DNA of 64,000 bases from Scenedesmus sp. PABB004. Lineage: Eukaryota. Shown here piece by piece: positions 20,875-60,869 of this stretch; position 1 is the stretch's first letter; every line of letters starts with the position of its first letter. Location: the NCBI GenBank assembly GCA_014905635.1, contig CM026547.1:2046001-2110000 (forward strand), read 5' to 3'. The notes below the pieces were generated by a model. That model saw only the letters and a program-made list of their open reading frames with translations, had not been told where the DNA came from and did not search any database. The translations under genes and the position numbers were made by a program.

Positions 20875-23800
20875 TCACAGCGACAGCGCGAGCTCGATGA
20901 GCCGCTCCGCCGTGAGCTCGGGCAGGGTGTGCCCCGCCGAGCCCAGCGCGTCCAGCCGCGCCGCGGCCGGCAGCGACCCGCCATCCGCAGCGGCCGCCGC
21001 GACGTCATACCCGTCGTCGTCGCCCTTGCCCTCGGCCTCTCCTGGCGCGTCAGCGGGGCTGCCGCCGGCGGGCGGCGCGGCGGCGCTGCTGCCTGGCGAG
21101 CCGGCCGCGCCTTCGGCCGCGCCGTCGCTGCCGCCGCCGCCGCCTTTAGCCGGCGGCGCCGCCGCGGCCTCGCCCGCAGCGGCGCCATCACCGCTGCCGT
21201 CGCCGTCGCCGCTGCTGTCCACGCGCGCGCGCTTGGGCGCCGCCGCCGCGTCGGCCGGCGCCGCGACGCCGTTGGCCCGCCCCGGCTGCTGCTCGCGCTG
21301 CTCCCCGCCCGCGGGCGAGCCGCCGCCGCTCGGCGCTGCCGCGGCGCCCGGCGGCGCGAGCGTGACGCGCACAAAGGCCCAGCCCATGGCCTCCGCGGCG
21401 GCCTCGTCCTCGGGGCCGTCGCCGACGGCCACGTAGCGCGCGCGCGGGCCAAACTTGGAGGCGATGGCCCCAAACGCGGCGAGCTTGGGCGCGTGCGCCG
21501 CGGCGTAGACGTCGTCCGCCTCAAACGCGCCGTCCAGGCGGAACAGCAGCAGCTTGGCCAGCAGCGGCGCGAGCTGGCTCGTCCCCACGAGCGCGTGCGT
21601 GACGACCAGCGACCCGCCCGGCTCGCTGAGCCGGCGCAGCAGCTCGCGGCCCGCCGTGAGCCAGCCGCCGCACGCCGCGTCGAGCTCCTCCCAGAGCAGC
21701 CCCAGCGCGCGCCGCTCCTCGCGCGGCAGCGGCAGCGCGCCCGAGCCGGTGTCGTAGAGGGCCTGAACCTCGCGCGCCAGCGCCGCGAGCGCGTCCGGCC
21801 GCGGGCCCACCACGGTGGGGCGCACCACGAGCACCGGCTCCGCCTCGCCCGCCGGCGCCGCGCCCGACGCCGCGGCGTCGGGCGCGGGCGGGGCCGGCGC
21901 GGGCGTGCCGCTCGGCGAGCCGCTGCCACCGCCGGCCGCGGGCGCGGCCCCGCGCCCGCCGTCGGCGTCGGCCTCAGCGTCGGCGTCGCCGTCGGCGTCC
22001 GCGCCCGCGCCGGCGTCCGCGCCCGCACTGGCGTCCGCCGGCGCCGCCTCGCCGCTGCCCGACCGCGGCTCGTCCCCGGCCGCGTCCACGTCCATCGCCT
22101 CCGCCGCCGCCCCGGGGCTGCCGGGCGGCTGCGGCTCGCCGGCAGCGCGCTGCGCGCGCTTGACGCGCTCAGCGTGGCGCGCGGCCAGGCGCCACGCGTC
22201 GCCGAGGCAGAGCAGGTCGACGTCCTCCAGCTGCCTGAAGTGCAGGCGCTCGTCCGCGAGCTTCAGCACCAGCGCCTGCATGCGCCGCGCGAGCGCCGCC
22301 GCGGCGGGGCCGTCGACGGCGCCGCCCGACGCGGCCGCGTAGCGCCCCGTGACGAGGCTGTGCAGCAGGACGAGCGTCTCGTCCAGGTCCCACACAAACA
22401 CGGCGTGCTGTGCGCGCCGGCGCGGGCGAGGGGGGTGAGCGCGGCGCAGGCAGGGCGCGCGGCGGGCACGGCAGCGCCCAGCGCGCGCAGCCGGCGCGGG
22501 TCCGCACGTTGTTCTTGGCGGGCGCGGCCTTGACCACCGGCGGCGGCGCCGCGGCGGCGGCTGCGGCTGCCGCGCGGCGCAGCTGCGTGCCCAGCCCCAC
22601 GGGGGGCAGGCCCAGCATCTGGCGCCGCGACATGGGCGGCGCCTCGATGGCCGCGCGGGCCGCCGCGTCGACGGCGCCCGCCCCGCGGCCGGGCGCCTGG
22701 TCATCATCGTCGTCGTCGTCGTCATCGTCCTCGTCGTCGTCGTCGTCGCTGCTCTGCACGGGCTCGGGGTCGCGCAGGCGCGCGGGGCGCACCCTGGGGC
22801 GCGACTGCAGGGCCCCGCTGCCCGCCGCCTGCTGCCCGTCCGCGCGCTGCGGCTGCTTGGCCTGCCGCAGCGCCAGCGCCTGCTGGGCGGCGCGCGGCGG
22901 CTGCAGGGCGGCGGCGGCGGCCGCCGCCGCGGCCCTGCCGCTGCCGCCGCCGGGGCTGTTGGGCACGGCGAGGTGCTGCGCCGGCACCTGCGCGCCAGGG
23001 TGCAGCACCTGGTTGCTGTCGGCGGCGCTCATCGACCCGGAGCCGGGCGCCGCCCTGCCCAGCAGCTGCCCCGACCACGTGCGCCCCGGCTCGCCGAGCA
23101 GGCCGGCGCCGCCGCGCGCCGGCGGCGCCAGCCACGGCTGCTGCTGCTGCTGCAGCATCCCCGCGTGCGGCGGCCGCAGCGCCTGCTGCTGCTGCTGCTG
23201 CTGCTGCTGCGCCAGCAGGAACTGCAGCTGCTGCTCCTGCTGCTGCAGCACCGCAAGCTCCTGCATCTGCAGCTGCTGCTGCGCCTCCATCTGGAGCTGC
23301 CGCGACGCGTGCTGCTGGCGCTGGCGCTGCAGCAGCTGCAGCAGCTGCACCTGCTCGTCCTGCTCCGCCTGCTCCGCCTGCTCCGCCTGATCGGCCTGCT
23401 CCGCCTGCTGCGTGACGCTCATCACCAGCTGCTGCAGCAGCGCCTGCTGCGCCGCGTCGAGCTGCGGCTCGGGCGCCGGCGCCGCCGCTGGCGGCGCCGC
23501 CGGAGTGGGGCCGAGCCGGTTCTGCAGCAGCTCCGCAAACTGCGGCGGCCGGGCCGCCCGGGACGGTGCGGCGCGCGGCAGCGGCAGTGAGCGCCCGCGC
23601 GGCCCGTGGCGGCGCTTGCGCGGCGGCGTGCGGCGCCGAGGCGGCCGCCACGCGACCGCGGCGGCGCACCTCGGGCAGGGCGGCCACGATCTGGTTGGCG
23701 ATGTCGTCCAGCGAGTCGGGGCCCCCGCTGCTGCCGCCCGGCCCCGCCTGCCCGCCCCCCGCGGCGGCGGCCAGCATAGCCCAGGCGTCGCCACGGCCGG

Positions 23801-31604: not shown

Positions 31605-34432
31605 TCACCACCAGGCGCGCCGCTTGGGCACCGCCGCCGCGCCCGAGGGCGGCTCCAGCTCCTTGAGCAGCGCCGTGAGCCGCGTGACCTCGCCCGCGAG
31701 GTGCGCCGCGACGTGCTCCACGGCGCTGCGGTCGAGGCCCGCCCACGCCTCGCTGCGGGAGACGTCGGCGTAGCGCTGCGCGACGTAGCAGGCCGCCGCG
31801 CGGCGCAGCGCCACCAGGCCCAGCTCGTCCGCCAGCGCGAGCAGGTGCGGCGCCTCGGCCGCCGCCGCGGCGGGCGGCATGCGCAGCAGCTCCGCGACGA
31901 GGCTCTCCTGGCACAGCTCAATCAGCCTGCGCGGGGCGGCGGGCGCGCGCGCGCTCGGCGCCCCCGCCCAGGCGCGCGCCGCGGGCGGCCGGCCGGCCGG
32001 CGGAGCTGCCGCGGGCCCCGCCCCCATGCCCCGCGCGCGCGCCTGGGGGTGCCGTAGAAGCAGGCGGCGTGCAGCAGGCGCACCACCGCGGGCGGGTCGA
32101 GCCCCGGCGGCAGGTCATCATGGTACATGTAGTGCAGCAGGCTCTGAGGAAAGGGGGGGCCAAGGGAGGCGAGGGAGGCGAGGGGCGTGGGCGCGCGCGC
32201 CGCCCCCCAGGCACGGCAGCCGCAACGCCCCCCCCCCAGCACCCCCGCGCACCCCGCCACACTCAACCCACCTTCATGCAGGCGAGGCTGAAGCCCTCCG
32301 GCGCGGTGTGGCTCGCGTCGTGCGCGTCCCTCATCCCGCTCGACAGCCGCGCAGCAAAGTGCGCGGCGCGGGCCCGCAGCACCGCCTTGTGCGCGGGCAG
32401 GCGCCAGCCCTGGCCCAGCAGCTCGATGTCTGGCGTGCCCAGCCCCGCCAGGCCCCCCCACAGCTCGCCCGGGCCGTCGCCAGCGCCCGCACCGCCGGCG
32501 GGGGCAGTTGGCGCCGCCTCCGCTGCGCCCGCCGCCACGCCGTCCTCGCCCGCCGGCGCGGGCGCCGCAGTGCGGCCGCCCCGCATCACAGGCGTCTCGG
32601 GCAGCGGCAGCGGCTCGCTGCCGGGGCTCGTGCCCGGCGCCGGCGGCGTGGCGTTGGCGCCAAAGGGGCTGAAGCAGCTCGTCCACACGCTGGCCAGCAG
32701 GCCCCCGCAGCCTGGCGGCGCCAGCGGCGGCGGGCGCGTCGGGCGCGGCGTGCCGGCGGCGCCGCAGCGCGCGCTGCACGCGCTGCCCGCGCGCACGGCG
32801 CGGCGCGGCCTGTCGCGCGCCGTGCGCCCCGCGGCGCGCACGCACCCGGGCCCGCGCCGTCGCGCAGGTCCTGTGCAAGCGTGGGCGGGGAGACGTCGAT
32901 GCGCATCGCGCCGCGCCGCGCCTCGCCGAGCACCGCGAGCGCGATGGTCGCGTCGGAGGGAACATCGAGCTCGCTGAAGCGCACCGACGACACGAGGCTG
33001 TGCCGCACGCTGCCGTCGGGCGCGCGGCTGTACAGGCGCAGGTCGCTGTCCACCGGCGCGAGCAGCTTGCCCGACGGCTCCAGCAGCGTCAGCAGCAGGT
33101 GCACGCGGTCCTCGGGGCACGCCGCGCCGACGCACACCTGCGCGCGCGGGGGTGAGTGCGCGGGGTGTGCACGCGCAGCAGCCAACAGCGTGCGCGGGGT
33201 GTGCACGCGCAGCAGCCAACAGCGTGCGCGGGGTGTGCACGCGCAGCAGCCAACAGCGTGCGCGCGTCGCGCCGCCTGCGGCCGGCGGCCTGCGGCGGGG
33301 CGGCGCGGCGCGCACCTTGTTGAACTTGCCCTTGAGCTGGGGCGAGGGGATGAAGACGTTGTGCTGGAAGAAGCTCAGCGGCGCGGCGGACGACGCAAAC
33401 TCGGCGTTGGCCTCGGCCAGGCGCGCGACGTTGTCGCGCGACAGCTGCACGCAGCGGGGCTTGGTGTCGATGCCGACGACGCGCCCCGTCCGCCCGACCA
33501 GCAGCGCCGCGCACGCCGATATGATTGCGCAGCCGCACCCCACGTCCAGCATGCGGTCGCCGGGCGCGAGCTCCAGCGAGTCCAGCATCTGCGCGTGCCT
33601 GGGCGCCGCGGCGCGGCGCGCGCGCACGCGTGCGTGTGTGTGTGTGTGGGGGGGGGGGGGGTTGCGGGGGCGCCGCGGCGGGCGCCGCGGCGGGCGCCGC
33701 GGCGGGAGCTCGCGGGGGGGGGGGGCTCGCGCGGCGGCGCGGTGGCGCAGCGCGGCCGACCCCGATCGCGCACATGTGGGGTGCGCTGATGTTGAAGTCG
33801 TCCTCCTCCACGCGGATGGGCGAGTCGACCCAGGCCTCGCCCCGGTAGGCCTCGGGGACCATCGCGCCGCGAGGCACCGCGAGCATCGCGCGCGCGACGC
33901 CCTCGCTCGTGAGCATGCCCGCGCGCTTCAGCCCCGCGACGAGCTCCTCGTTGCTGCGCGCCGCGTCGCGGCGCTGCACGACCACGCGCTGCCCCGCCAG
34001 CAGGCGCAGCAGGCCCTCCAGCGGGATGGCCTGCGGGGGCGGGCGAGGGCGGCGGTTGCGGCAGCAGCGCTGAGCAGCGGCAGCGGCGGCGCGCGCGCGG
34101 CGGGGCGCGGCCGCCGCTGGGGGGTCCGTGGCGGTCGTGCGGATTGATAAAGGTGCCGGTGTGTCACAGCGGCGGCGCACAGGGGCAGGGGACGGCCGCG
34201 GCGGCGCTGCGGGCGCGCGCGCCGCCGCTGCTCGCCGTCGCCGCTGCCCGGCGCTGCGGCGCGGGCCGCGGGCCCGCGCCGCAGCCTGGCGGCGCACCTC
34301 TGCGTGGACTGCGCGCGCTCGGCGGCGCCGGTTGCCGTGGAGGTCCTCCTCGGCGCCCTCCTCTGCCGCGAGGTCCTCCTCGGCATCCGCCAGGCCCTCC
34401 GCGTCCAGGCCGGGCTCGCGCGGGTCAGCCAT
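31605..34432 (-). CDS. Protein L-isoaspartyl methyltransferase (PIMT/PCMT) domain fused to BTB-BACK
   Basis: PIMT motifs NEELVAGLK, ISAPHM, LDVGCG, GRVVGID, KVCVGAA and LEPSGKLLAPV. BTB motifs DIELLGQGWRLPAHKAVLRARAAHF...SGMRD and LLHYMYHD. BACK-like LLALADELGLVALRRAA. Confidence 0.87.
33156..33264. repeat. 34-bp tandem repeat x3 in an intron
   Basis: Unit gtgcgcggggtgtgcacgcgcagcagccaacagc at 33156, 33190 and 33224. Confidence 0.95.
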
Positions 34433-50095: not shown

Positions 50096-50454
50096 CCCCC
50101 CACGCCCCGGTCTGCGGTCGACCGTGCTCACGCGCAGCGCGGCGCCGCACGGCAAGGGGCCTGGCCCTCAGCAGCGTGGTGCCGCAAATCCCGTCGTGCG
50201 CTTGACCCCCGCTTCCCTTGTCCGGAGCGGGCGCGGCGGCGGCGCGCGTTTTGAGCGCTGCGCCGTTAAACCTCGCGCACCGGGCGCTCCCCGCGGCCCA
50301 ACGTCCCCCGTATCCTCCGTCGCTCCGCGGCAGTTGTTTCCCCAGCCAACGCTGCAGCAAACGCCGGCGGGGGCGACAGCTGCAGCGCGGCAGCAGCAGC
50401 GCGGCAGCAGCGGCGGCGGCCGCGCGCGGCGCGGATGGCGCCCTGCTGCGTTTC

Positions 50455-52227
50455 ATGAGTGGGGCGCTCGCCATGCTCACGGCCTCGCTGCGGGGGTCCG
50501 CTGCGGAGCGGGGCGGGGCTCCACTGCTGCGTGGCGGCGGGCGTGCTGCGGGCGGGCGGGCGCTGTGCGGCGTGCGGGCCGCGGCGGCCAAAGCGGCAGG
50601 GGCCCGCGCAGCCGGGGCCAAGGCGGCGCCGCCGGCGAGCGCCGCGGCGGCCAAAGCGGCGCCACCGGCGAGCGCCGCGGCGGCCAAGGCGGCGTCGCCG
50701 GTGCCGGCGGCGGGCTCGCCGCCGCGGCTGCTGCTGGTCGACGGCCACAGCATTGCTTGCAGGGCCTTCTACGCGCTCCAGCGCTCGCTCGCGCCGTCAA
50801 CGGGTACGGCGCGCGGCGCGGCACCCACAGCGCGCGGCGCAGCACGCGGGGGCCCAGCGCGCGCCCGGGGCGCGTGGCGCGGCGCGGCGCTGAGACGCCG
50901 GCGCCCTCCCCCCTGGTCTGCGCCGCGCGCCCAGCCGACGGCATACCGACGTCGGTCGTGTTTGGCTTCACGCGCAGCCTCCTGGCGATCACGGAGCAGG
51001 AGCGGCCGCACGCGCTGGTGGCCGTCTTTGACGCGCCCGGGGGCAGCGCGTTCCGCGCGCAGCTGCTGCCGACCTACAAGGCCACCCGCGCGCGGTTGCC
51101 GCCGAGCTTTGCCCCTGACCTGCGCAACCTGCGCACGCTGCTGGCGCACATGCGCGTGGCCACGGTGAGCGTGCCGGGGTTTGAGGCGGACGACGTCCTC
51201 GCCGGCCTCGCGGCGCAGGGCAGCGCGCAGGGCGCGGAGGTGCGCATCTTCTCGTCCGACTCTGACCTCTGGCAGGCGAGCGGCACGCGCACGCGCGCAC
51301 GCGCGCGCGCGCACGGCCCCCGCCGGGCCCGCGCCGCCACTCACGCGCGTCCCGCCGCCGCCGCCGCCGGCAGCTGGTCGACGACGCCGCGCGCGTCGCG
51401 GTGCTGCTGCCGGCGCCGGCGTCGCGGCCGGCGGCGGGGCGCGGAGGGCAGGCGCGGGCGCCCGCGGGCGCGCTGCTGGACGAGGCGGCCGTGCAGGCGC
51501 GGCTCGGGGGCGTGCCGGCGCACCTCGTCGCCGACTACAAGGCCCTGGTCGGGGACGCGTCAGACAACGTGCCGGGCGTGCGCGGCGTCGGGCCCAAGAC
51601 CGGCGCGGAGCTGCTCACCGCCGGCGGCAGCCTGGCGGGCGTGTTCGGGGCGCTCGAGGCGGGCCAGCTGCGCGAGGCGCTCGCGCGCAAGCTGCGGGGG
51701 CAGCAGGCGGCCGCCGAGCGCGCGCTGGAGGTGACACGCCTGAGGTGGGCGCCGGACCCCGCGCCCGGGCGTGGTGGCCCGCGTCGCCCCGCGCGCCGCG
51801 CCGCCGGCGCCGGCCAGGCCCGAGACCCCGCCGCCGCCCGGGCGGGGGCCGCCCCGCCGCGCAGGCCCGAGGCCGCGCCGGCGCTGGACCTCGCCGCGTG
51901 CCGCATGGCGGGCTTCTGCGCCGCCGAGGTCGAGCCGCTGCTGCGGCGGCTCGAGCTTAACAGCCTGGTCAGGGGCCTGCCGGCGCTGCAGGCGGCGCTC
52001 GGCGGTGCGCGCGGGCCGCGCGCGCGCCCCCGCCGGCGCGCGGCCGCGGGCGCCTCTGCCGCAGCCCGCCGGCGCTCACCGCCGCCGCCGCGGTCGGCGC
52101 AGGGCCCGCGCCGCCGGACCCGCAGCTCACGGCGTCGCTGCCGGCGGCGCTGGCGTCGCTGGAGGGCGCGCGGCCTGTGGAAGGGGGGCCGCGGCGAGCT
52201 GAGCCGGGCTGCTGCGTGGAGGGCTGA
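50455..52227 (+). CDS. Pol I-type 5'-3' exonuclease / flap endonuclease (organellar OEX-like); termini approximate
   Basis: LLLVDGHSIACRAFYAL, AVFDAPGGSAFRAQLLPTYKATR, PGFEADDVLA, SSDSDLWQL and DYKALVGDASDNVPGVRGVGPKT. Confidence 0.88.
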
Positions 52228-52603
52228 ACGCGGCGCTGGCCCGTGCTGCGGGTGCTGGCCGGCGGCCCTCGCGCGGTCGTCGCCGTCACCGCACGAAGAA
52301 GGAGGCAGCTCGCCCTGTCGCTGGTCCTCAACACCACGCAGCGCAGAGGGTCATCCTCTCTCGCTGGCCCGAGGCCGCGCACCCCGGGCGCGGAGTGCCG
52401 ACGGCGGCGCGCGCGCGCCTCTGTCCCGCCGCGCGGCGCGGGTCGGGCGCGAGCGCACGCTCTCTCTGCGGCCGCGCCAGCGCGCTGCGCGGCCCACGAC
52501 GCTGCGGCGGGCAGGCTGACGGTGGTTTGGACGTGCTACACAACCGAAGGCGTAGCTGCCCCCGGGGCCCGCTGGGCAGCCCTGCACCGGGCACCGCAAC
52601 GCA

Positions 52604-53037
52604 CTAGGAGCGCGCGACTTCTGAACGGCCGCGCGAGGCGCGGCCGCCACCAGCAGGCAGGCTCCAACAGCAGCACGACAAAACCGGGGCGCGGCCAGCA
52701 CACCTTGTTCAGGTGGCCTGCTGGTGTTCTTTATTACTAGCCGCACACACACGTGTGTGGCGCCCGGGGCCGCTTGCCCCCAGACGCGTCGGGCGTCCCG
52801 GCGGGACGCCCCGCGAGGGCGCAGCGTGCTGCTGTGCACACGGTCATCGGCCGCACACACACCACACATGAGCAGACGCGCAGGCAGGTCCTGAGCAACT
52901 CGGACGCAGGCGCCGCTCAAACCCATTTAAGCCCGGCACCCGCCGCGACCGGGCACCGGCCGCCGCCGGGGCGCGCGCCCCGGCGGCGGCGACGGCTGGG
53001 ACCTCGGACCTCCGACCTCGGGACCTCAAACTCAACT
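52604..53037 (-). ncRNA. Candidate Fanzor omegaRNA scaffold region
   Basis: Immediately 3' of the Fanzor stop. Perfect 32-nt palindrome 52959-52990, stem 52791-52811, stem 52766-52780, palindrome 52746-52759 and stem 52626-52646. Confidence 0.45.
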
Positions 53038-56000
53038 TCAGCCCGCCCCTGGCTCCCAATCCATATCGTCGCCGTCAGACTGGGGCGGCGTGAGCTCGCC
53101 CCCGCCGCCCCGCCCGCGCCCGCCACGCCCGTGCCGGCCGCCGCCCCGGCCCCGCCCGCCGCCGCGGCCGCACCCGCCGCGGTCACGCCCGCGCGTGGCG
53201 CGCGCGGCCGCGCGCACCGCGCGCGTCGCCGCCGCGCCGGCGGTCGTGCTGGCCAGGCCGACCTGCGCCTCGGTGAAGCCGGCCGCCAGCAGGCGCTGGC
53301 GGTCGGCGTTCACAAACGTCTGCGCCAGGCCCAGCGCGGCAATGTTGGCCGCCGCGTTTACGTCGCGATTGAACAGCAGCGGCCGCGGCGGCACGGCGTC
53401 GGTGCGGCAGGTGCCGTAGCACTGCCGCACCTTGAAGCCGTCGCGCTTATTCATGCCGGGCGCGGCGTTGGTGGTGGCCGCCATGCAGGCGTGGTGGACC
53501 TGGGAGGTCCAGCACTTATTCACAATCATGCAAACACAATACCCATGGCGCTCGCCAAACCTGACGAGCGTCTTGACCGGCGCGTCCTGGGGGCGCGCGA
53601 TGATCGACCCCCGCCCGGCGGACGCGCTCCCGACAAACAGCACGGCCGCCGGCGCGCGCGCGCGGTGCTCGACGCGGCGCCGCAGGTATCCCAGGCGCCC
53701 GCGCCCCTGCCTGAAGAAGGGCGTCCAGCGCCCGCGCACCGTATGAAAGGTCGTGTTGGTGCACGTGTCAAAGTTGCGAATGCGCTAAAAAACCGGTGCA
53801 TCTCCTTGTCGTTCAGCATGTGCACCCGAAACTCCCACGCACACGCATGCATGCAGCCGTAAACACAAAATGCACGGTCAAACAGGCCCACGCGCGCGCC
53901 CGCCGCGTCGGCGGCGGCCAGGAAGCTGCCGCAGAGCCGCGGCGCGCGCGTGGCCAGGCCCTCCTGCGCGCGCGCAAACGTCCGACGTGCCCCCGCCCCC
54001 GGCCCCCTCCGCCCCGCGCACCCGGGTTTCTTGGTTGCGTGTGCGGTTATTGAATGCTGATGCGTCCCGATACCCCCGCATTGAGAGCGTCACCACGTCG
54101 GCGCCGCCCCGCGCGTCGTGCGCGGCGGGGCAGCGGTGCTGCGCGGCGGTGCGGTGCCCGCGGCGCGTGCAGCCGCAGGCAGGGTGCGACAGCGCCCGGC
54201 ACGCGGCGATGTCGCCGAGGCCGGGGTCCCAGCCCCACGCCAGCGTGCGCCCCAGCGCCGCCACGGCCGCCGGCGCGGCCGGCCGGGCGGGGTCAAACGC
54301 GGCGTCGAGGACCGCGCCGCCGGCGGCGAGCGCGGCCTGCGCGCGCGCGCGGTCGTCGGCCTTGAACGCGCGGCGGTCGGCGGCGCCGGGCCGGGCGGGC
54401 CGGCGCCAGGGCGGCAGCGGGTCGCGCGACGGCGGCGCCGCCGCCGCTGCAGCCGCCGCCGCCGCGGGGTCGGGCGCCGGCGCCAGCCCGGGCTCGGCGT
54501 CGCTCGAGCCCGGCTCGGCGTCGCTCGAGCCCGGCTCGGGCGCCGGCGCCGGCGCGGGGGCAGCCGGGTCGGCGCGCGCCCGCATGACACATGCATCGTA
54601 TCCATTTGTGCAAAGCTGGCCGGACGCGCGCCACGTGCGGGGTGCTGAGCCCGTCGCGATCAAGCCAGTCCGCCTCACCCTCGAGGTCAAACCCGGGGCA
54701 CGCGGCGCGCTGCAGCTCGAGCGTGTCGCGGTGCAGGTGCCCCTGGGCAGTCTCAAACAGGTGGAGGTGAACCCGCCCGTAGTGCTGCCGCGGCTGCAGC
54801 GAGAAGCCGCGGCGCCCCGCGAGCGCGTCGCAGCGGCCGCGCGCCTCGCTCAGCTTGCGCAGGCGCGCGAGCAGCGCGTCGTCCACGCCGGGGGCAAACG
54901 CCGCCGCGCGCGCGCGCGGCGCCGCGTCGCCTGGCAACCCCGGGTTGCGCTGGCGCAGGGCGGCGATGGCGCTGTCGGCCTGCAGCTCGGCCGCGCGGCA
55001 CGCGGCCAGGCCGTCCTCCAGCACCTCCGCCGCCAGGTGCTGGTAGAGGACCGCCGCGTCGGCGTCCAGCCGGTCCAGCAGCTCGCCCGCCACCGCCAGG
55101 CTCTGCGGCGCCGCCGCCGGCAGCGCCGCCGGCGGGTGCTACGCGCGCTCCTGCGCGGCCGCCGCAGCGACATGATCGCCGAGGTGCCGCCCGGCAAAGC
55201 GCAGCGCGCGCGCCCGCGCCTCGCCCAGCTGCTGGCCCGCGCCGGCGAGGGCCGCGTGGGCGGCCTGCGCGCCGGGCCAAACTGCAGCCAGGGGCCCTGG
55301 CGCCGCCTGCTGCTGCCACGCGGCCGCCTCGAGCTGCTCGCGCGCATCTGCCAGCGCGCCCAGGGCGGCTGCCATCTGCTGGCACGCGGCGCCCAGCACG
55401 GCCTCGCGCAGCGACCAGTCGGCGCACGCCGCGGCGGCGGCCGCCGCCGCCGCGGCGTCCGCCGCCGCCGCGTTGCCCGCCGCGGCCGCTGCCGGCTGGC
55501 CCCGAGCGGCAGCGGCGCGGCGGCGGGCAGGGCCGGGCGGGTCGCCCTGAAGCGTTCCAGCTTCGCCGGCCCCCATTCCGTCGCCGCCGCCTTGGCCTTG
55601 CCGCCGTCGCGCAGCGCCTTCTGCAGGCGCGCCTGGCGGTGCTGCGCCTGCGTGCGGTAGCGCCGCTCGCCCGCAGCGCGGGGGCGCGGCGACGGCCGCC
55701 CGCGCTGCACCTCCGCGAGCGCCGCCTGCCTGGCCGGCCTGCGGGCCTCGTGGAGCTCGTGGCGCGCGACGCGCTGCGCCTGCTGGCTGACGCGCTCCGC
55801 CTCGCGCGCCAGCCACTGCGCCTGGTGCACGTGCGGGTAGCCGCCGCGCCGGCGCGCGACCAGCGCGTCGGGCAGCACGTCGCCGCCAAGCCGCACCGCC
55901 AGCGCAGCCAGGCGCTGCTGGGCGGCCGCCATGTCGGCCTTGAGCTGCTGCAGCGCCGCGAGGCGCTGTGGTGGCGCCGACGGCCCGGGCACGCTCGCGG

Positions 56001-57948
56001 CGCGCTGCGCCACGGCCCGCGGCGTGGCGGCGAGCTCCAGCAGCGGCAGCCCCTGCACCTGACGCACCACGGCCGCGCCTGGCGCGCGGCGCCGCCACTC
56101 CCCCACTGCCGCCGCCTGCAGGCGCTGGGTGAAGTAGTTGAACAGCAAGCACTTCTGCAGGTCGTTGAACGCAACCGCTGCGTCGGCCTCGCGGTGGGCC
56201 GCGTCTGCCTCGCCCTGCTGCCGCTGCGCCTGACGGAGCGCGTCCAGGCGCTGCGCGTGGCTCGGTTGTTGGGCCGGCTGCTGCTCTGCGTCGTCGTCGG
56301 CACCGGGGTCGGCCGGCGCGCCCGCGGGCGGCGGCGCCTCCATCGCCGCGCGCCAGCCGCCGTCGCCGCCGCCGCCGCCGCCGCCGCCGCCAGCGTGCGC
56401 CGAGCCGCGGCCGGCACGCAGCCACGACAGCAGGTCCGCCGTCACGCCCTGGTGGCCGGCCGACAGGCCCAGGGCCTGCAGGTCCTCCGCGCGGCCGGCG
56501 GGCGGCCGGCGGTTCCGCGCGCCGGCAGCGGCGGTCGCCGCCGGCCCGCCGGGCGCCGCGTCGCCGTCGCCGGCTGCGGCGTCGGGGTCGTGCTGCGGCG
56601 GCAGCGGCCGCAGCAGCTCGAGCCGCAGCGCCAGCGCGTGGCGCCGCAGAAAGTCCAGCGCGCGGCGCGCCTCCGCCTCGCCGCCGCCGCCGGCGCGGCG
56701 CAGCCGCGCGGCGGCCTGGGTCAGCCATGTGGCAGCCGGCTGCCACGCCGCGTCCCACGCGGCGGGGCTCTCCGCCAGCACGGCGCACACGAGCGCGCCG
56801 CCCAGCTTGGCGCGCTCGCGCGCCGGCGGGCAGCGCGCGCCTGCCAGGTTGGCGGCGAGGCAGACCAGCAGGTCGGCCAGCTTGCGCAGCCGCGGGTGCC
56901 GCGCGTGCAGGCGCACGTTAAGCGCAAACAGCCGGGTGTAGCCGTGCGCCAGCTCCTCCAGAAGCGTGGGGCTCACCCAGCGCGGCAGCTCCACCGCGGC
57001 CGCGCCCGTCGCCGCCCAAAAGAGCGGCAGCATGCGCTGCAGCTCCCATGGGGTGCGCGTTGCGCACGCCTCATGCTGCCGCCCTGGCAAGCTGGTGACC
57101 GCGAAGATCAGGTCCTCCAGCGCGCGCTCGCTGCCGGCGACCCAGCGCAGGTAGTCGGAGCACGCTGCGGTGGTCACGGGACCGTCTCGCAGCAGGCCCT
57201 GGCCGGCGCGTGGCACCTCGTGCCCGGCCACACGCCTGCGGGCGCGGCAGCGGCGGCGGGGTCGGCGCGCGAGGCTTGGGGCGGCGGTGGCGCCACGCGT
57301 GCGCGCGCGCGTGCGCGCTGCCGCCGCCGCGCCGCGCGGGCACTCACGCGCAGGCGTAGTGAGTCATGAGCTCGTGCGCCTGCCGCGCCATGTAGGTGGC
57401 CTTGCTCAGCAGCGTCACCAGCTGGTTGATGAGCTGCATTCGCGTGTCGACCAGCGCCGCGGGCAGGGCGGGCCGCCCCACACGCGCCGCGCGCGCCAGC
57501 GCGCTGCGCAGGCGGCGCACCACCGTGCCTGCGGGGGCGCGGCGCAGCGGCGGTCGTCGGCCAGCCTGCGCGGCGCGGCGTGGTGGGCAGTCGTGGCGCC
57601 GAGCCCGCCCGCCCCGCTCACCGATCCGGGCGCTCTCCTCTGCCCGCTCGCGCTTGGTGCGCGGGCCAGCCTGCCAGTGCCCGCCGGCCGGCGGCGCCGG
57701 GCGCTTGCGTGGCGCGGGCGCGCGCTGCTGCTGCTGCTGCTGCTGGTGCGCCTGCTGCTGTTGCTGCTGCTCCTGCCCCGGCTCCTGCTGCTGCTGCTGC
57801 TGCTGCCGCGCCGGCTGCTGCCGCGGCGCCGGCGCCGGCGGCGCAGCCCCCGGCGGCTCCTCCGCCGCGGCGCCCCTGCGGCGGCGCTTCCGGCACCTCC
57901 GCGCGCTGCCCGAGCTGCCGCTGCTGCCGGCGCTGTCGTTGCTGCTGC

Positions 57949-57983
<35 letters not shown>

Positions 57984-59730
57984 TCGCTGTCCAGCGGCGC
58001 CGCGGCGCCCTTGCCCTTGCCGCGGCGCTTCTTGCGGCTGCGCCGCCGCTGCTGCGGCGGCTGCGGCTGCGGCTGCGGCTGCGGCTGCGGCTGCTGCGGC
58101 GGCTGCGGCTGCGGCTGCGGCGGCGGCTGCGGCTGCTGCGGCGGGCCCGCCGCCGGGCCCCCACCTCGTCGCTGCCGGCCGCGGCGCTGCCCGCGGACGG
58201 CCCGGCGCTGGCGCCGCCCGCCGCCGGGGCGCCGCCCTCCTCGCCGCCGCCGCCGGGCGCCGCCTGCGAGGCCGCCGCGCGCCAGGTGGCAAAGGGGCCG
58301 GGCGCCCGGCGCACCGCCTCCATGGCCGCCGCGCGGTCGGCCTCGCGGCAGGCCTGCGCGCGGCGGCGCAGCTCCTTCCAGTCGGCGTCGCCCACGGGCT
58401 GGCCCGCGAGCTTGGCGGGGTCCTTGGCGGTGTCGATGCCGCGCGCGGGCGGCGGGCCCGGGGGGCCGCCGCTGCGCGCGCCGCTCGCGCCGCCGCCGCC
58501 GCCGACGCTGCTGGTGGTGCTGCTGGTGCTGCCGCTGCGCGCGCCGCTCGTGCCGCCACTGCGGCGGCCGCCGCCGCCGCCGCCGCCGCTGGCGGCGCGG
58601 GCGGCGCGGCCGGCGACGCGGCGCGCGTGCAGGTCCGCAAAGACCACGCGCTGCTCGGCGGCCGCCACGGCCTTGGCAGACGGCGGGGCCGCCGCGGCGC
58701 GCGCCTTGGACGCGGCGAGCTCCGCAGCTTCCTCCTCCGACTTGGCCCAGGCCGCCGCGGTGGCAGCCGCAGCAGCGCTCGCGGCGCGCTGCTCCGCGTC
58801 GCGCCGCGCGGCCGCCTCGGCCGCCTCGCGCGCCGCGCGCGCGCGCGCCGCCGCGCGCCGCAGCTCGTCGGGCGTCTCGGCGCACCCCGGCGGCGGCTCG
58901 CGCAGCACGTCCGCGCGCACGAGGCCGACGCAGTGGTTGATCGTGGCGTCCTCGAGCGCCGCGCCGTCGAAGCTGGGCGCAGCGGTGGCGGGCATGAAGT
59001 ACGCCGCCACCTCGCGCGCCTCCTCGTCGCACACCACCAGCTGCTCGCCGCGCTCCAGCGCGGCGAGCACCGCCTGCGGCGGGTGCTCCGAGACCAGCCG
59101 CAGGCCGTTCTGGTCGCAGAGCAGCCCCAGCTCGGCGGCGGTCAGGTAGGTGCTGCTGTCGAGCAGCGCCTCCGAGATCTCCCTGATCGCGAGCTGCTGC
59201 GCAGCAAAGTCGCCGCCGAGACGGTCGCGCGCCATCAGCACCGCGGCGTGCGCCTCGCGGCTCGCCGCGGGGTCGGCGAGCGAGAGCACGAGCGCCGCGA
59301 GCTGGGGGTGCAGCTCCTCGTGCGCCTCGCTGTCCAGCTGGCGCCGCGTGTGTGGCGGGAAGTCCGCCACGTCGGCGCCGGGCGCCAGGCGCAGCAGGTG
59401 CAGCAGGCGCCGCCGCACCGCGGCGAGCAGGTGCAGCGCGCAGTTGCCGTTCGGCACGCCGTGGAAAAACACCACGCGGCGCTCGCGCAGCCCCGGCGCA
59501 GCAGGTGCGCACGCGTGCACGTTGGGGGCTTTATCTCCTCGTCCTCCTCCCCTGCGGAACGGCGTCGGAGTCGCAGTCGGGCGTGGCAGCGGCGGGTCAG
59601 CCGGCGCGGCAGCGGCGCGGCGGCGGCGCGGGCGCTCGCCGGCGCCCATCATCTCTGCGGCCGCCGGCGCGGCGGCGCGGCGGCGCGGGCGCTCACCCCC
59701 GCCCATCCTTGCGCTCCTCCGCCGGCTCAT
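53038..59730 (-). pseudogene. Fanzor1 (eukaryotic TnpB-like RNA-guided RuvC nuclease) with N-terminal OTU-like domain; intron-containing, disrupted
   Basis: FSLQP..HLHL and SGQLCTNG (TDG-like). RuvC-I WGWDPGL (D at 54226-54228), bridge-helix-like YG...WEFRVH, then LFVGS. RuvC-II VNKCWTSQ, Zn-finger HHAC...CYGTC, RuvC-III NRDVNAAANI (D at 53362-53364). Introns 57529-57621 and 57236-57347. In-frame TAG at 55139-55141 and several frameshifts. Confidence 0.85.
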
Positions 59731-60869
59731 GGCTAGCCGCGGGCGGGCCTGCGCGGGGCGCCGGGCAGCGGACGGCGCGGCGCAGATGTCGATCGACCCC
59801 GCCCGCCCCGGACGCGGCAGCGCGCCGCGGCGGAGCGGCGCGCGTCGGTCGGTGTCGGACGACCCACCCGGACGCCATGGCGTGCGCGACGGGTGCGCGG
59901 GTGCCGCGCGTGGGCGCTGCCACGCTCTCGAAACCTCGCCTCTCGCTGCTGTGACGCCTCTGGAGCCACAGGGACACGAGATGAGCGCGGTAGCACTGGG
60001 GGCTGGGCGGGCGCTCGCGGGGACACCGCCGCGGCGGAGCGCGGGCGGCGGCGGTGCAGCGCTGGACCGCGCCCCGAGCCGCCGCTCTTCAGCCCGCGTG
60101 GGCCGGGCGGGCGCGCGCTGCCGCTCTTGCAGCAGCAGGCGAGGGAGGGCGGGCGGGAGGGCCTCTGCTGAGCGAGGGCAGAGCGAGGGCAGCGCGCAGG
60201 ACGGCGCGGGCGAGCTGGCGGTGGGGCGCGGGCCGGGGCACAGCAGCTCGCGGGGCTTTTGCGCAGGAGCGCCATGGTGGGCCCCGCGCCAGCCCTCCAC
60301 GACGCGCATCATCGGCCCCGCCTGGGCCTCCAGCTCGCGCCAGTGGCTGGGGCGCCGGCTGTTCCGCGAAACGCCGCTGTTCCGCTCGCCCCAGCGGTCC
60401 GCTGCGCTCATTGGCGCGCAGAACGATCCCCCATCGCATTCAGCCCCACGTACGAGGGTCGCACGGACCGACTCCTGCGTTTGCAGCCGGGAGGAGGCTC
60501 CTCTCCACACCTGGACGGCTGCGGCCAAGGCCAGGCATGGCTACCCAGGCGGGCCGCCGCCGGGCCCGGGGCGCCTGACCGCGGGAGCGTCGGGGGCCGC
60601 AACTGATGCAGCGTGGCGCCCAGTCGAGCCGGCAAGGCCTGCGGCGCGTCTCGAGCCATCCGCCGGCGGCGGTCGGCAGCGCGCCCGGGCGTGGAGCCGC
60701 GCCTGAGGTGAGCACGCGGCGGCGCCAGGGCGGAAGACTCAGCGATGCCCGCTGCGTGCCCCTCGCGCGTGCGGGCCCGCCGCGCCCGCCCGCGCCGGCC
60801 TCGGGGCGCACGGCCCGGAACGGGCCGCCCGGAGGCGCGGGCGGGCGCGGCGGCGCGCGGGGACCGAAA

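Follow-up and report, generated by a model that had tools for sequence, protein, structure and literature searches.

The window analysed here, a stretch of 64,000 nucleotides from contig CM026547.1 of Scenedesmus sp. PABB004 with a GC content of about 80%, carries on its minus strand a nuclease gene of Fanzor1 type followed by a long non-coding tail. The coding side of the locus comprises the following features, given in window coordinates.

53038-57231, minus strand: apparent Fanzor1-type nuclease pseudogene with about four frameshifts; 5′ limit uncertain
58918-59490, minus strand: segment of an upstream open reading frame, tentatively OTU-protease-like (Atlas feature match of 0.90; of the members of the matched cluster, 19% carry OTU)
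59935-60080, minus strand: 5′ limit of similarity to a long copy on contig C6; the segment, also found in host DNA, was probably captured

The nuclease frame ended in RuvC and zinc-finger motifs, with its stop codon at 53040-53038. The reading frame changed near 54630, 54000 and 53787 and probably also near 55500, and introns may account for some of these breaks. The RuvC-I Asp (about 54228) and the RuvC-III Asp (53364-53362) were kept, and the WDPG and NRD motifs aligned with those of homologues. The alternative RuvC-II Glu, present in all five homologues displayed, was replaced by Lys (AAG, 53517-53515), and the zinc finger retained three of its four Cys, the first being replaced by His. The alternative Glu is essential in ApmFNuc (PMC10530073). 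The window nuclease, judged from its sequence, is a pseudogene, and because Lys stands in place of this catalytic residue it is filed as a decayed Fanzor1 derivative rather than as an active member.

An exhaustive homologue search gave seven matches at E ≤0.001, of which five were homologous over the domain (best P0001, E 1e-20) and two, long repetitive proteins, were set aside. Three of the four homologues scanned matched Pfam Cas12f1-like_TNB, one of them (P0001) above the cut-off, and profile A4 searched against solved structures matched SpuFz1 best (E 0.0098), with Fanzor2 L79 at E 0.032. No Fanzor match was obtained when eight window reading frames were scanned with Pfam, a single-sequence search of the PDB gave no match, a word-seeded search for longer homologues yielded none among 1320 candidates, and none of 96 viral contigs searched with alignment A2 was confirmed. 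The C-terminal part of the nuclease had only two matches in the genome, the window itself and a fragment on C32, and no intact nuclease was found in the assembly.

The upstream segment 58918-59490 contains Cys and His boxes that we take to be those of the OTU-protease motif; it had no Pfam match, and its structure model was too poor to use (pLDDT 43.5). The segment is partly present in the long C6 copy and in the C14 copy. An OTU domain is known from Helitron-like elements (PMC11417382), and the OTU-like identity of the segment is a lead only. A low-complexity part of the upstream reading frame (about 58170-58790) matched a repeat of about 590 bp at several loci with 71-75% identity (C35:1118443, C24:679230, C15:261384, C1:2180916, C38:64862 and C76:1056305); either a further multicopy element or similarity in composition may explain this. 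The segment at 59935-60080 is regarded as probably captured since it also occurs in ordinary host DNA at C6:1143700.

Repeats and hairpins in the 3′ tail

The original prediction had placed a candidate omegaRNA at 52717-53037, in a stretch marked by tandem repeats, a 32-nt palindrome and a stem, all of which are present. Four GACCTC units (GAGGTC on the minus strand) follow the stop codon immediately, at 52998-53027; a perfect palindrome of 32 nt, to which no strand is assigned, spans 52959-52990; and 52791-52811 forms a stem with 10-nt arms around one base (as RNA, 9 bp and a 3-nt loop). Smaller stems lie at 52744-52759 and 52626-52646. Among 500 dinucleotide shuffles of 52717-53037, none contained a 16-nt arm and nine contained a 10-nt arm. 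The folding z of the same stretch was −2.07 on the minus strand and −4.0 on the plus strand. The flagged hairpins and repeats are thus real and exceed shuffled sequence, yet they are not unusual for this genome, because arms of at least 10 nt occurred in 25 of 199 window tiles of 321 nt, seven of 45 random window tiles folded equally well (z ≤ −2.0), and three further perfect or near-perfect palindromes of 30-33 nt with arms of at least 15 nt lie in the window (21858-21887, 34253-34285 and 55426-55458).

These features were compared between copies of the element. The palindrome was perfect in three of the five end-bearing copies that span it, the other two having lost 1-2 nt in one arm, and it was wholly or partly missing from three of the eight end-bearing copies. 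The stem at 52791-52811 was invariant in six spanning copies and is uninformative on pairing. The GAGGTC unit occurs four times in five copies and three times in the long C6 copy, the three shortest copies being without it, and a natural deletion contig from freshwater data retained 52534-52903 with the palindrome and repeats deleted. A new 33-nt inverted insertion was present in the C8 copy, and the long C6 copy contained several local inversions. Inverted duplications arise readily in this Fanzor1-type family, and the palindrome is probably a template-switch product.

The element end and its flank

The genome searched comprises 40 Mb in 80 contigs, and copies are named by contig (C1, C4, C6 and so on). 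Its eukaryotic genes are split by introns, which, together with the freshwater samples that contain the sequence, suggests a green alga. The following features define the tail and its end.

52535-53037, minus strand: conserved non-coding 3′ tail, 503 nt from stop codon to element end, with 90-100% identity in seven other copies
52535-52556, minus strand: terminal hairpin with a 7-bp stem (GCUACGC/GUGUAGC) and a variable loop, in all eight copies
52535, minus strand: last hairpin base and element end; 52534 if the following A belongs to the element
52515-52534, minus strand: corrected predicted guide, the first 20 nt of the flank, ACGUCCAAACCACCGUCAGC
52604-52607, minus strand: CTAG read earlier as an end, internal; followed by 70 conserved bases in eight of eight copies
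52737-52740, minus strand: CTAG read earlier as an end, a private variant found in one of seven covering copies

Searching the genome at the DNA level gave seven further loci, identical at 90-100% of positions over the part retained, which all ended at window 52528-52535; a terminal pattern search gave eight matches against none for the reversed control. In the alignment of the eight copies, a shared hairpin, GCTACGC-loop-GTGT(A/G)GC, ended at 52535 and the sequences then diverged. Its loop contained indels in three copies, and one stem change converted U-A to U-G. An A directly followed 52535 in five copies, all of one subfamily. A freshwater metagenome DNA contig departed from the window at 52534 and continued for 279 nt, and five matches to the terminal motif in metagenome contigs all lay in unrelated context. 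The element end is, with near certainty, at 52535 (±1).

Beyond 52535 the flank differed in all eight copies. Both guides that had been predicted before are internal, conserved element sequence, and the variable flank starts only at 52534, where the corrected guide begins and reads downward; its first A may be the terminal base of the element. The corrected guide had no other site in the genome within two mismatches, and three sites at three mismatches compared with seven for the reversed control. TGTAA is the chlorophyte-type poly(A) signal, and none was found in the tail (52535-53037).

Several observations concern the flanks themselves. The C8 copy (L048 9349-9391) has a 21-nt tandem duplication across the element end and the first flank bases. 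The 3′ flanks of the C11 (L045) and C4 (L050) copies begin with GAGTTCC and GAGGTCC; the latter is identical to the unit repeated within the element behind the stop codon, a coincidence not significant against background. Guide-directed insertion and inherited fuzzy ends were rejected, as the flanks were no more alike than background (p 0.57-0.81); the p values of 0.01-0.17 obtained over four lengths by shuffling within flanks are not taken as support. On the plus strand, an intron-split 5′-3′ exonuclease gene (50218-52202; Pfam PF02739 and PF01367) converges on the element end. The flank at 52203-52511 is a partly inverted duplicate, about 78% identical, of C1:2110297-2110628 (L052 297-628), which lies 12 kb away and upstream of what is presumably a GDP-mannose-pyrophosphorylase-like gene; the 22 nt between the flank duplicate and the element end match nothing else. 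This duplicate was rejected as a long target duplication, being partly inverted, 22 nt off the element end and separated from the 5′ limit by 4.4 kb that include a host-like gene.

Dispersed copies and mode of spread

Nine loci were found in the genome, eight of which keep the 3′ end; the seven other end-bearing copies retain 93, 272, 431, 672, 674, 694 and 762 bp. In the C14 and C32 copies the tail is joined to distant parts of the element (internal deletion). The C8 and C11 copies carry about 700 bp of a C13 host gene, and the capture is placed at the DNA level because this segment holds upstream DNA and an apparent unspliced intron (boundaries by eye). Its donor at C13:~1487630-1488380 (L088) covers a host promoter region and first exons; the C8 (L048) and C11 (L045) chimeras have different breakpoints, and the chimeric unit moved at least twice. 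The captured promoter region could drive transcription of the tail at both loci. At the 5′ junction of the C67 copy, a 29-nt exact match was found to a host exon, presumably of a cysteine-synthase-like gene, 300 bp upstream of the C4 copy (L049 8950-8988 and L050 8802-8830), with a 9-nt microhomology in the palindrome arm, which suggests that copying ran from the element into the donor flank with a microhomology jump. The ninth, long copy (C6:1175892-1180207) is without the end; a duplication of 53 bp with 91% identity flanks it.

No short target duplication was present at any of the eight end-bearing copies, and no TTTT was found at the 5′ junctions. Asymmetric terminal inverted repeats were sought at the 5′ junctions with five terminal or subterminal words at one mismatch and no match was obtained, though the native 5′ end may differ. 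Two weak Pfam searches of the assembly found neither RepHel nor a transposase: Helitron_like_N had no match, the control genomes being silent too, and PIF1 had one, at a locus that reads as an intron-split host helicase. DNA-based spread of this family keeps the 52535 end and truncates or replaces the other end. The element works like a CRe element and is at most a candidate member of Helitron2.

Position of a putative omegaRNA

The following features bear on the place and length of an RNA.

52535-52627, minus strand: extent of the shortest dispersed copy and candidate omegaRNA core, 93 nt; C6:234595-234687 is identical to the window
52599-52615, minus strand: candidate 7-bp stem-loop, possibly SL1; six of seven pairs never vary and one is broken in one copy
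52579-52592, minus strand: candidate 4-bp stem-loop; C-G became U-G in two of six distinct rows, with pairing kept through a subfamily change
52525-52927, strand not given by contigs: span under high-identity contigs from three RNA-library runs (two studies)

The omegaRNA interval first proposed lies within the 3′ tail of a minus-strand Fanzor-type element, and in this it holds, the tail being conserved in all seven other copies; it stops short of the true end by 182 nt and leaves out the probable scaffold core at 52535-52716. A likely core, on our analysis, is 52535 to about 52700, outside the flagged 52717-53037. This placement is favoured because changes in the terminal hairpin are confined to the loop or keep a wobble pair, because characterised Fz1 omegaRNAs have a first stem of 7 bp and a length of 75-150 nt (PMC11423790), and because a natural copy keeps 52534-52903 and lacks the palindrome and repeats. 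Under one-ended copying, truncation points need not track RNA boundaries.

Structural conservation among the copies was checked over the last 93 nt. Pairing was kept in 99% of cells; among 18 tested pairs in six distinct rows of near-alike copies, two changed on one side and none showed a compensatory change. The stems of the flagged stretch itself were invariant or broken by deletions. The last 93 nt and last 182 nt folded with z of 0.33 and −0.77, no better than shuffles, and an Rfam search gave one match at chance level (E 2). The stems of the last 93 nt would be compatible with a scaffold and are not evidence for one.

Contigs from four of ten listed freshwater runs (three RNA, one DNA) were compared, leaving out six, including RNA run X7. 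The RNA-library contigs give neither strand nor true ends and may be DNA. An X2 contig (52527-52710) and an X3 contig (52525-52675) had no difference from the window allele, including 8 and 10 nt, respectively, of the window's own flank; the X3 pieces probably represent a single read pair that was duplicated. X2 and X5, which come from one sample, also hold a C14-like allele, and X5 runs 5 nt past the end. RNA contigs stop 5, 8 and 10 nt past 52535, and this near-coincidence between two studies hints weakly at a transcript that carries a guide from the flank. The stretch 53340-53859 had no depth in the three RNA runs (GC 0.67 compared with 0.69 in the covered part), which is not evidence either way.

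Preferred explanation and alternatives

The explanation that we prefer, with confidence a little above even, is that of a decayed Fanzor1 tail with its end at 52535, an end-proximal scaffold with a flank guide, and one-ended copying. Of the non-coding 3′ tail of this decayed Fanzor1-type transposon, 52717-53037 forms the upstream 60%. By analogy with Fanzor1 and TnpB biology, the ancestral transcript would have run through the tail into the flank and been trimmed to an omegaRNA consisting of a scaffold ending at 52535 and a guide of about 15-20 nt from the flank, here beginning ACGUCCAAACC. Its scaffold core would most likely be the last 95-200 nt or so, and the flagged repeats and palindrome would be precursor or 3′-UTR sequence. 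One-ended copying of a rolling-circle-like kind, such as has been proposed for CRe-1/2/3, probably also has its origin at the terminal hairpin. That the ancestral omegaRNA ended at 52535 is held with good confidence. Production of a discrete RNA today is doubtful, and any RNA made now is probably an orphan, because the assembly yielded no intact nuclease. For the flagged palindrome and repeats, a place in the mature RNA is improbable, whereas 52717-52927 is a somewhat better, if still unlikely, candidate.

The corrected end and guide would stand equally if the mature RNA were about 400 nt long, starting near 52930 and passing 52535 into the flank, with the lower two-thirds of the flagged stretch (52717-52927, including the stem at 52791) as scaffold. 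We consider this long form unlikely. It is favoured over a short core by RNA contigs that extend to 52922 and 52927, inside the flagged stretch and about 110 nt after the stop codon, as in Chlamydomonas Cre-1, whose small RNA begins some 100 bp beyond the last exon and continues across the element end (bioRxiv 2023.06.13.544871). It also agrees with the natural deletion copy, which retains nearly the same interval, and with the folding of 52515-52930 (z −2.49), which two of 100 shuffles equalled; five of 45 background tiles nevertheless reached z ≤ −2.5. The two upstream contig ends derive from a single sample and are 30 nt away from the perfect GC palindrome, which could break assembly; the 33-nt insertion and variable patches fall within 52717-52927, and the characterised Fz1 omegaRNAs are much shorter (PMC11423790).

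A further step down in probability is the reading that no RNA role is left, the conserved end being an origin of DNA transposition and the RNA contigs host read-through or DNA carry-over. The broken nuclease and the lack of covariation fit this reading, as do the position of the C4 copy, 110 nt after a host stop codon and in sense orientation, and that of the C8 and C11 copies behind a captured promoter region; a DNA origin of the contigs is also possible. Against it stand the clustering of contig ends from two studies 5-10 nt past the element end and the 3′-end omegaRNA of every Fanzor tested in PMC10530073, the CRe-1 analogue included.

It is also conceivable, at a low probability, that there is no Helitron end at all and that the omegaRNA hairpin is the fixed end of one-ended copying, possibly by break repair that the Fanzor drove while still active, with modules of 93-762 bp scattered as a dispersed guide array that is still transcribed and usable in trans. 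If so, modules would lie in host 3′-UTRs, in introns and behind captured promoters with at least eight different flank-derived guides, and guides transcribed in wild populations could program an intact Fanzor in trans.

Marginally less probable again is retroposition, in which a LINE or PLE enzyme would have reverse-transcribed an omegaRNA-ended transcript from its 3′ end, leaving 5′ truncation and short A tails. The fixed 3′ end and variable 5′ end would agree with this, and A is enriched at the start of the flanks (15 of the first 32 bases, p 1e-7; 10 of 32 at flank positions 2-5, p 1e-3). However, the A runs are just 0-4 nt long, short target duplications are absent from all eight copies, the captured C13 segment includes upstream DNA and an apparent intron (boundaries by eye), and local inversions and microhomology joins suggest DNA synthesis. 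The earlier reading, in which the element ended at 52737 or 52604 and the guide was one of two sequences beginning there, retains only a negligible probability: both proposed ends are CTAG, the Helitron1 end motif (CTRR according to PMC3627910), and are ruled out since all eight end-bearing copies run to 52535, with both guides conserved inside copies and the first CTAG private to the window copy.

Comparison with known systems

The corrected guide prediction supplies exact coordinates for an omegaRNA test. With this locus a second alga-like genome shows one-ended, DNA-capturing Fanzor1 behaviour of CRe type, and no Helitron2 ends are recognisable in it. This is relevant to a point left open in PMC3627910 and PMC10288648, namely whether Fanzor contributes to its own spread. 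Given a decayed nuclease and copies too similar to show covariation, the locus is of little value as a tool or functional system. A literature search that fell short of most subscription journals found no paper on this Fanzor1-type family.

CRe-1/2/3 of Chlamydomonas reinhardtii are Fanzor1 non-autonomous Helitron2 elements (PMC3627910, PMC10530073 and bioRxiv 2023.06.13.544871), in which 5′ truncation, internal deletion, intact 3′ ends and captured DNA are read as one-ended rolling-circle copying (PMC3627910). The window family is like them in having a Fanzor1-type gene without a transposase, intact 3′ ends, 5′ truncations, internal deletions, captured 5′ sequence, an occasional long flanking duplication (here 53 bp, 91%, at the long C6 copy) and many copies of the RNA region only (20 extra in C. 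reinhardtii). No cleavage by CrFNuc-1 of C. reinhardtii is reported in these papers. In the CRe-2 3′ region and the C4/C67 variant, GCGGTGCCTGT, CTAGTGC and CCTTCGG occur in the same order (by eye; this may be chance). Unlike CRe and Helitron2 elements, the family shows no recognisable 3′ asymmetric terminal inverted repeat and has no subterminal hairpin or CTTGT end, and its hairpin closes on the last or next-to-last base. It also differs from CRe in lacking TTTT at 5′ junctions and target duplications of 7-19 bp (0/8), in its A-rich 3′ flank, in that no RepHel was found in the assembly, in its 503-nt tail and decayed gene, and in having only nine loci. Because CRe-3 has target duplications in only 10% of loci (PMC3627910), age may have erased them here.

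Like the omegaRNAs of SpuFz1, GtFz1 and PpFz1 (PMC11423790), the predicted RNA would have its scaffold at the element's 3′ end and take its guide from the adjoining flank, and a candidate 7-bp first stem lies at 52599-52615; unlike those RNAs, the one here is a prediction, and no covariation was found. With the Fanzor1 family MCi-2 of Mucor (PMC3627910) it shares near-identical 3′ parts, variable 5′ parts, the lack of terminal inverted repeats and an unclassified status, although the patterned 11-12 bp target duplications of MCi-2A/D were not seen here. Replitrons (Craig 2023; PMC10288648) are likewise green-algal copy-and-paste elements with a right-end hairpin, but neither a terminal direct repeat nor a Rep gene was seen in the window family, and inherited 'fuzzy ends' are unsupported. 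The arrangement of the window family resembles that of the known Chlamydomonas CRe elements.
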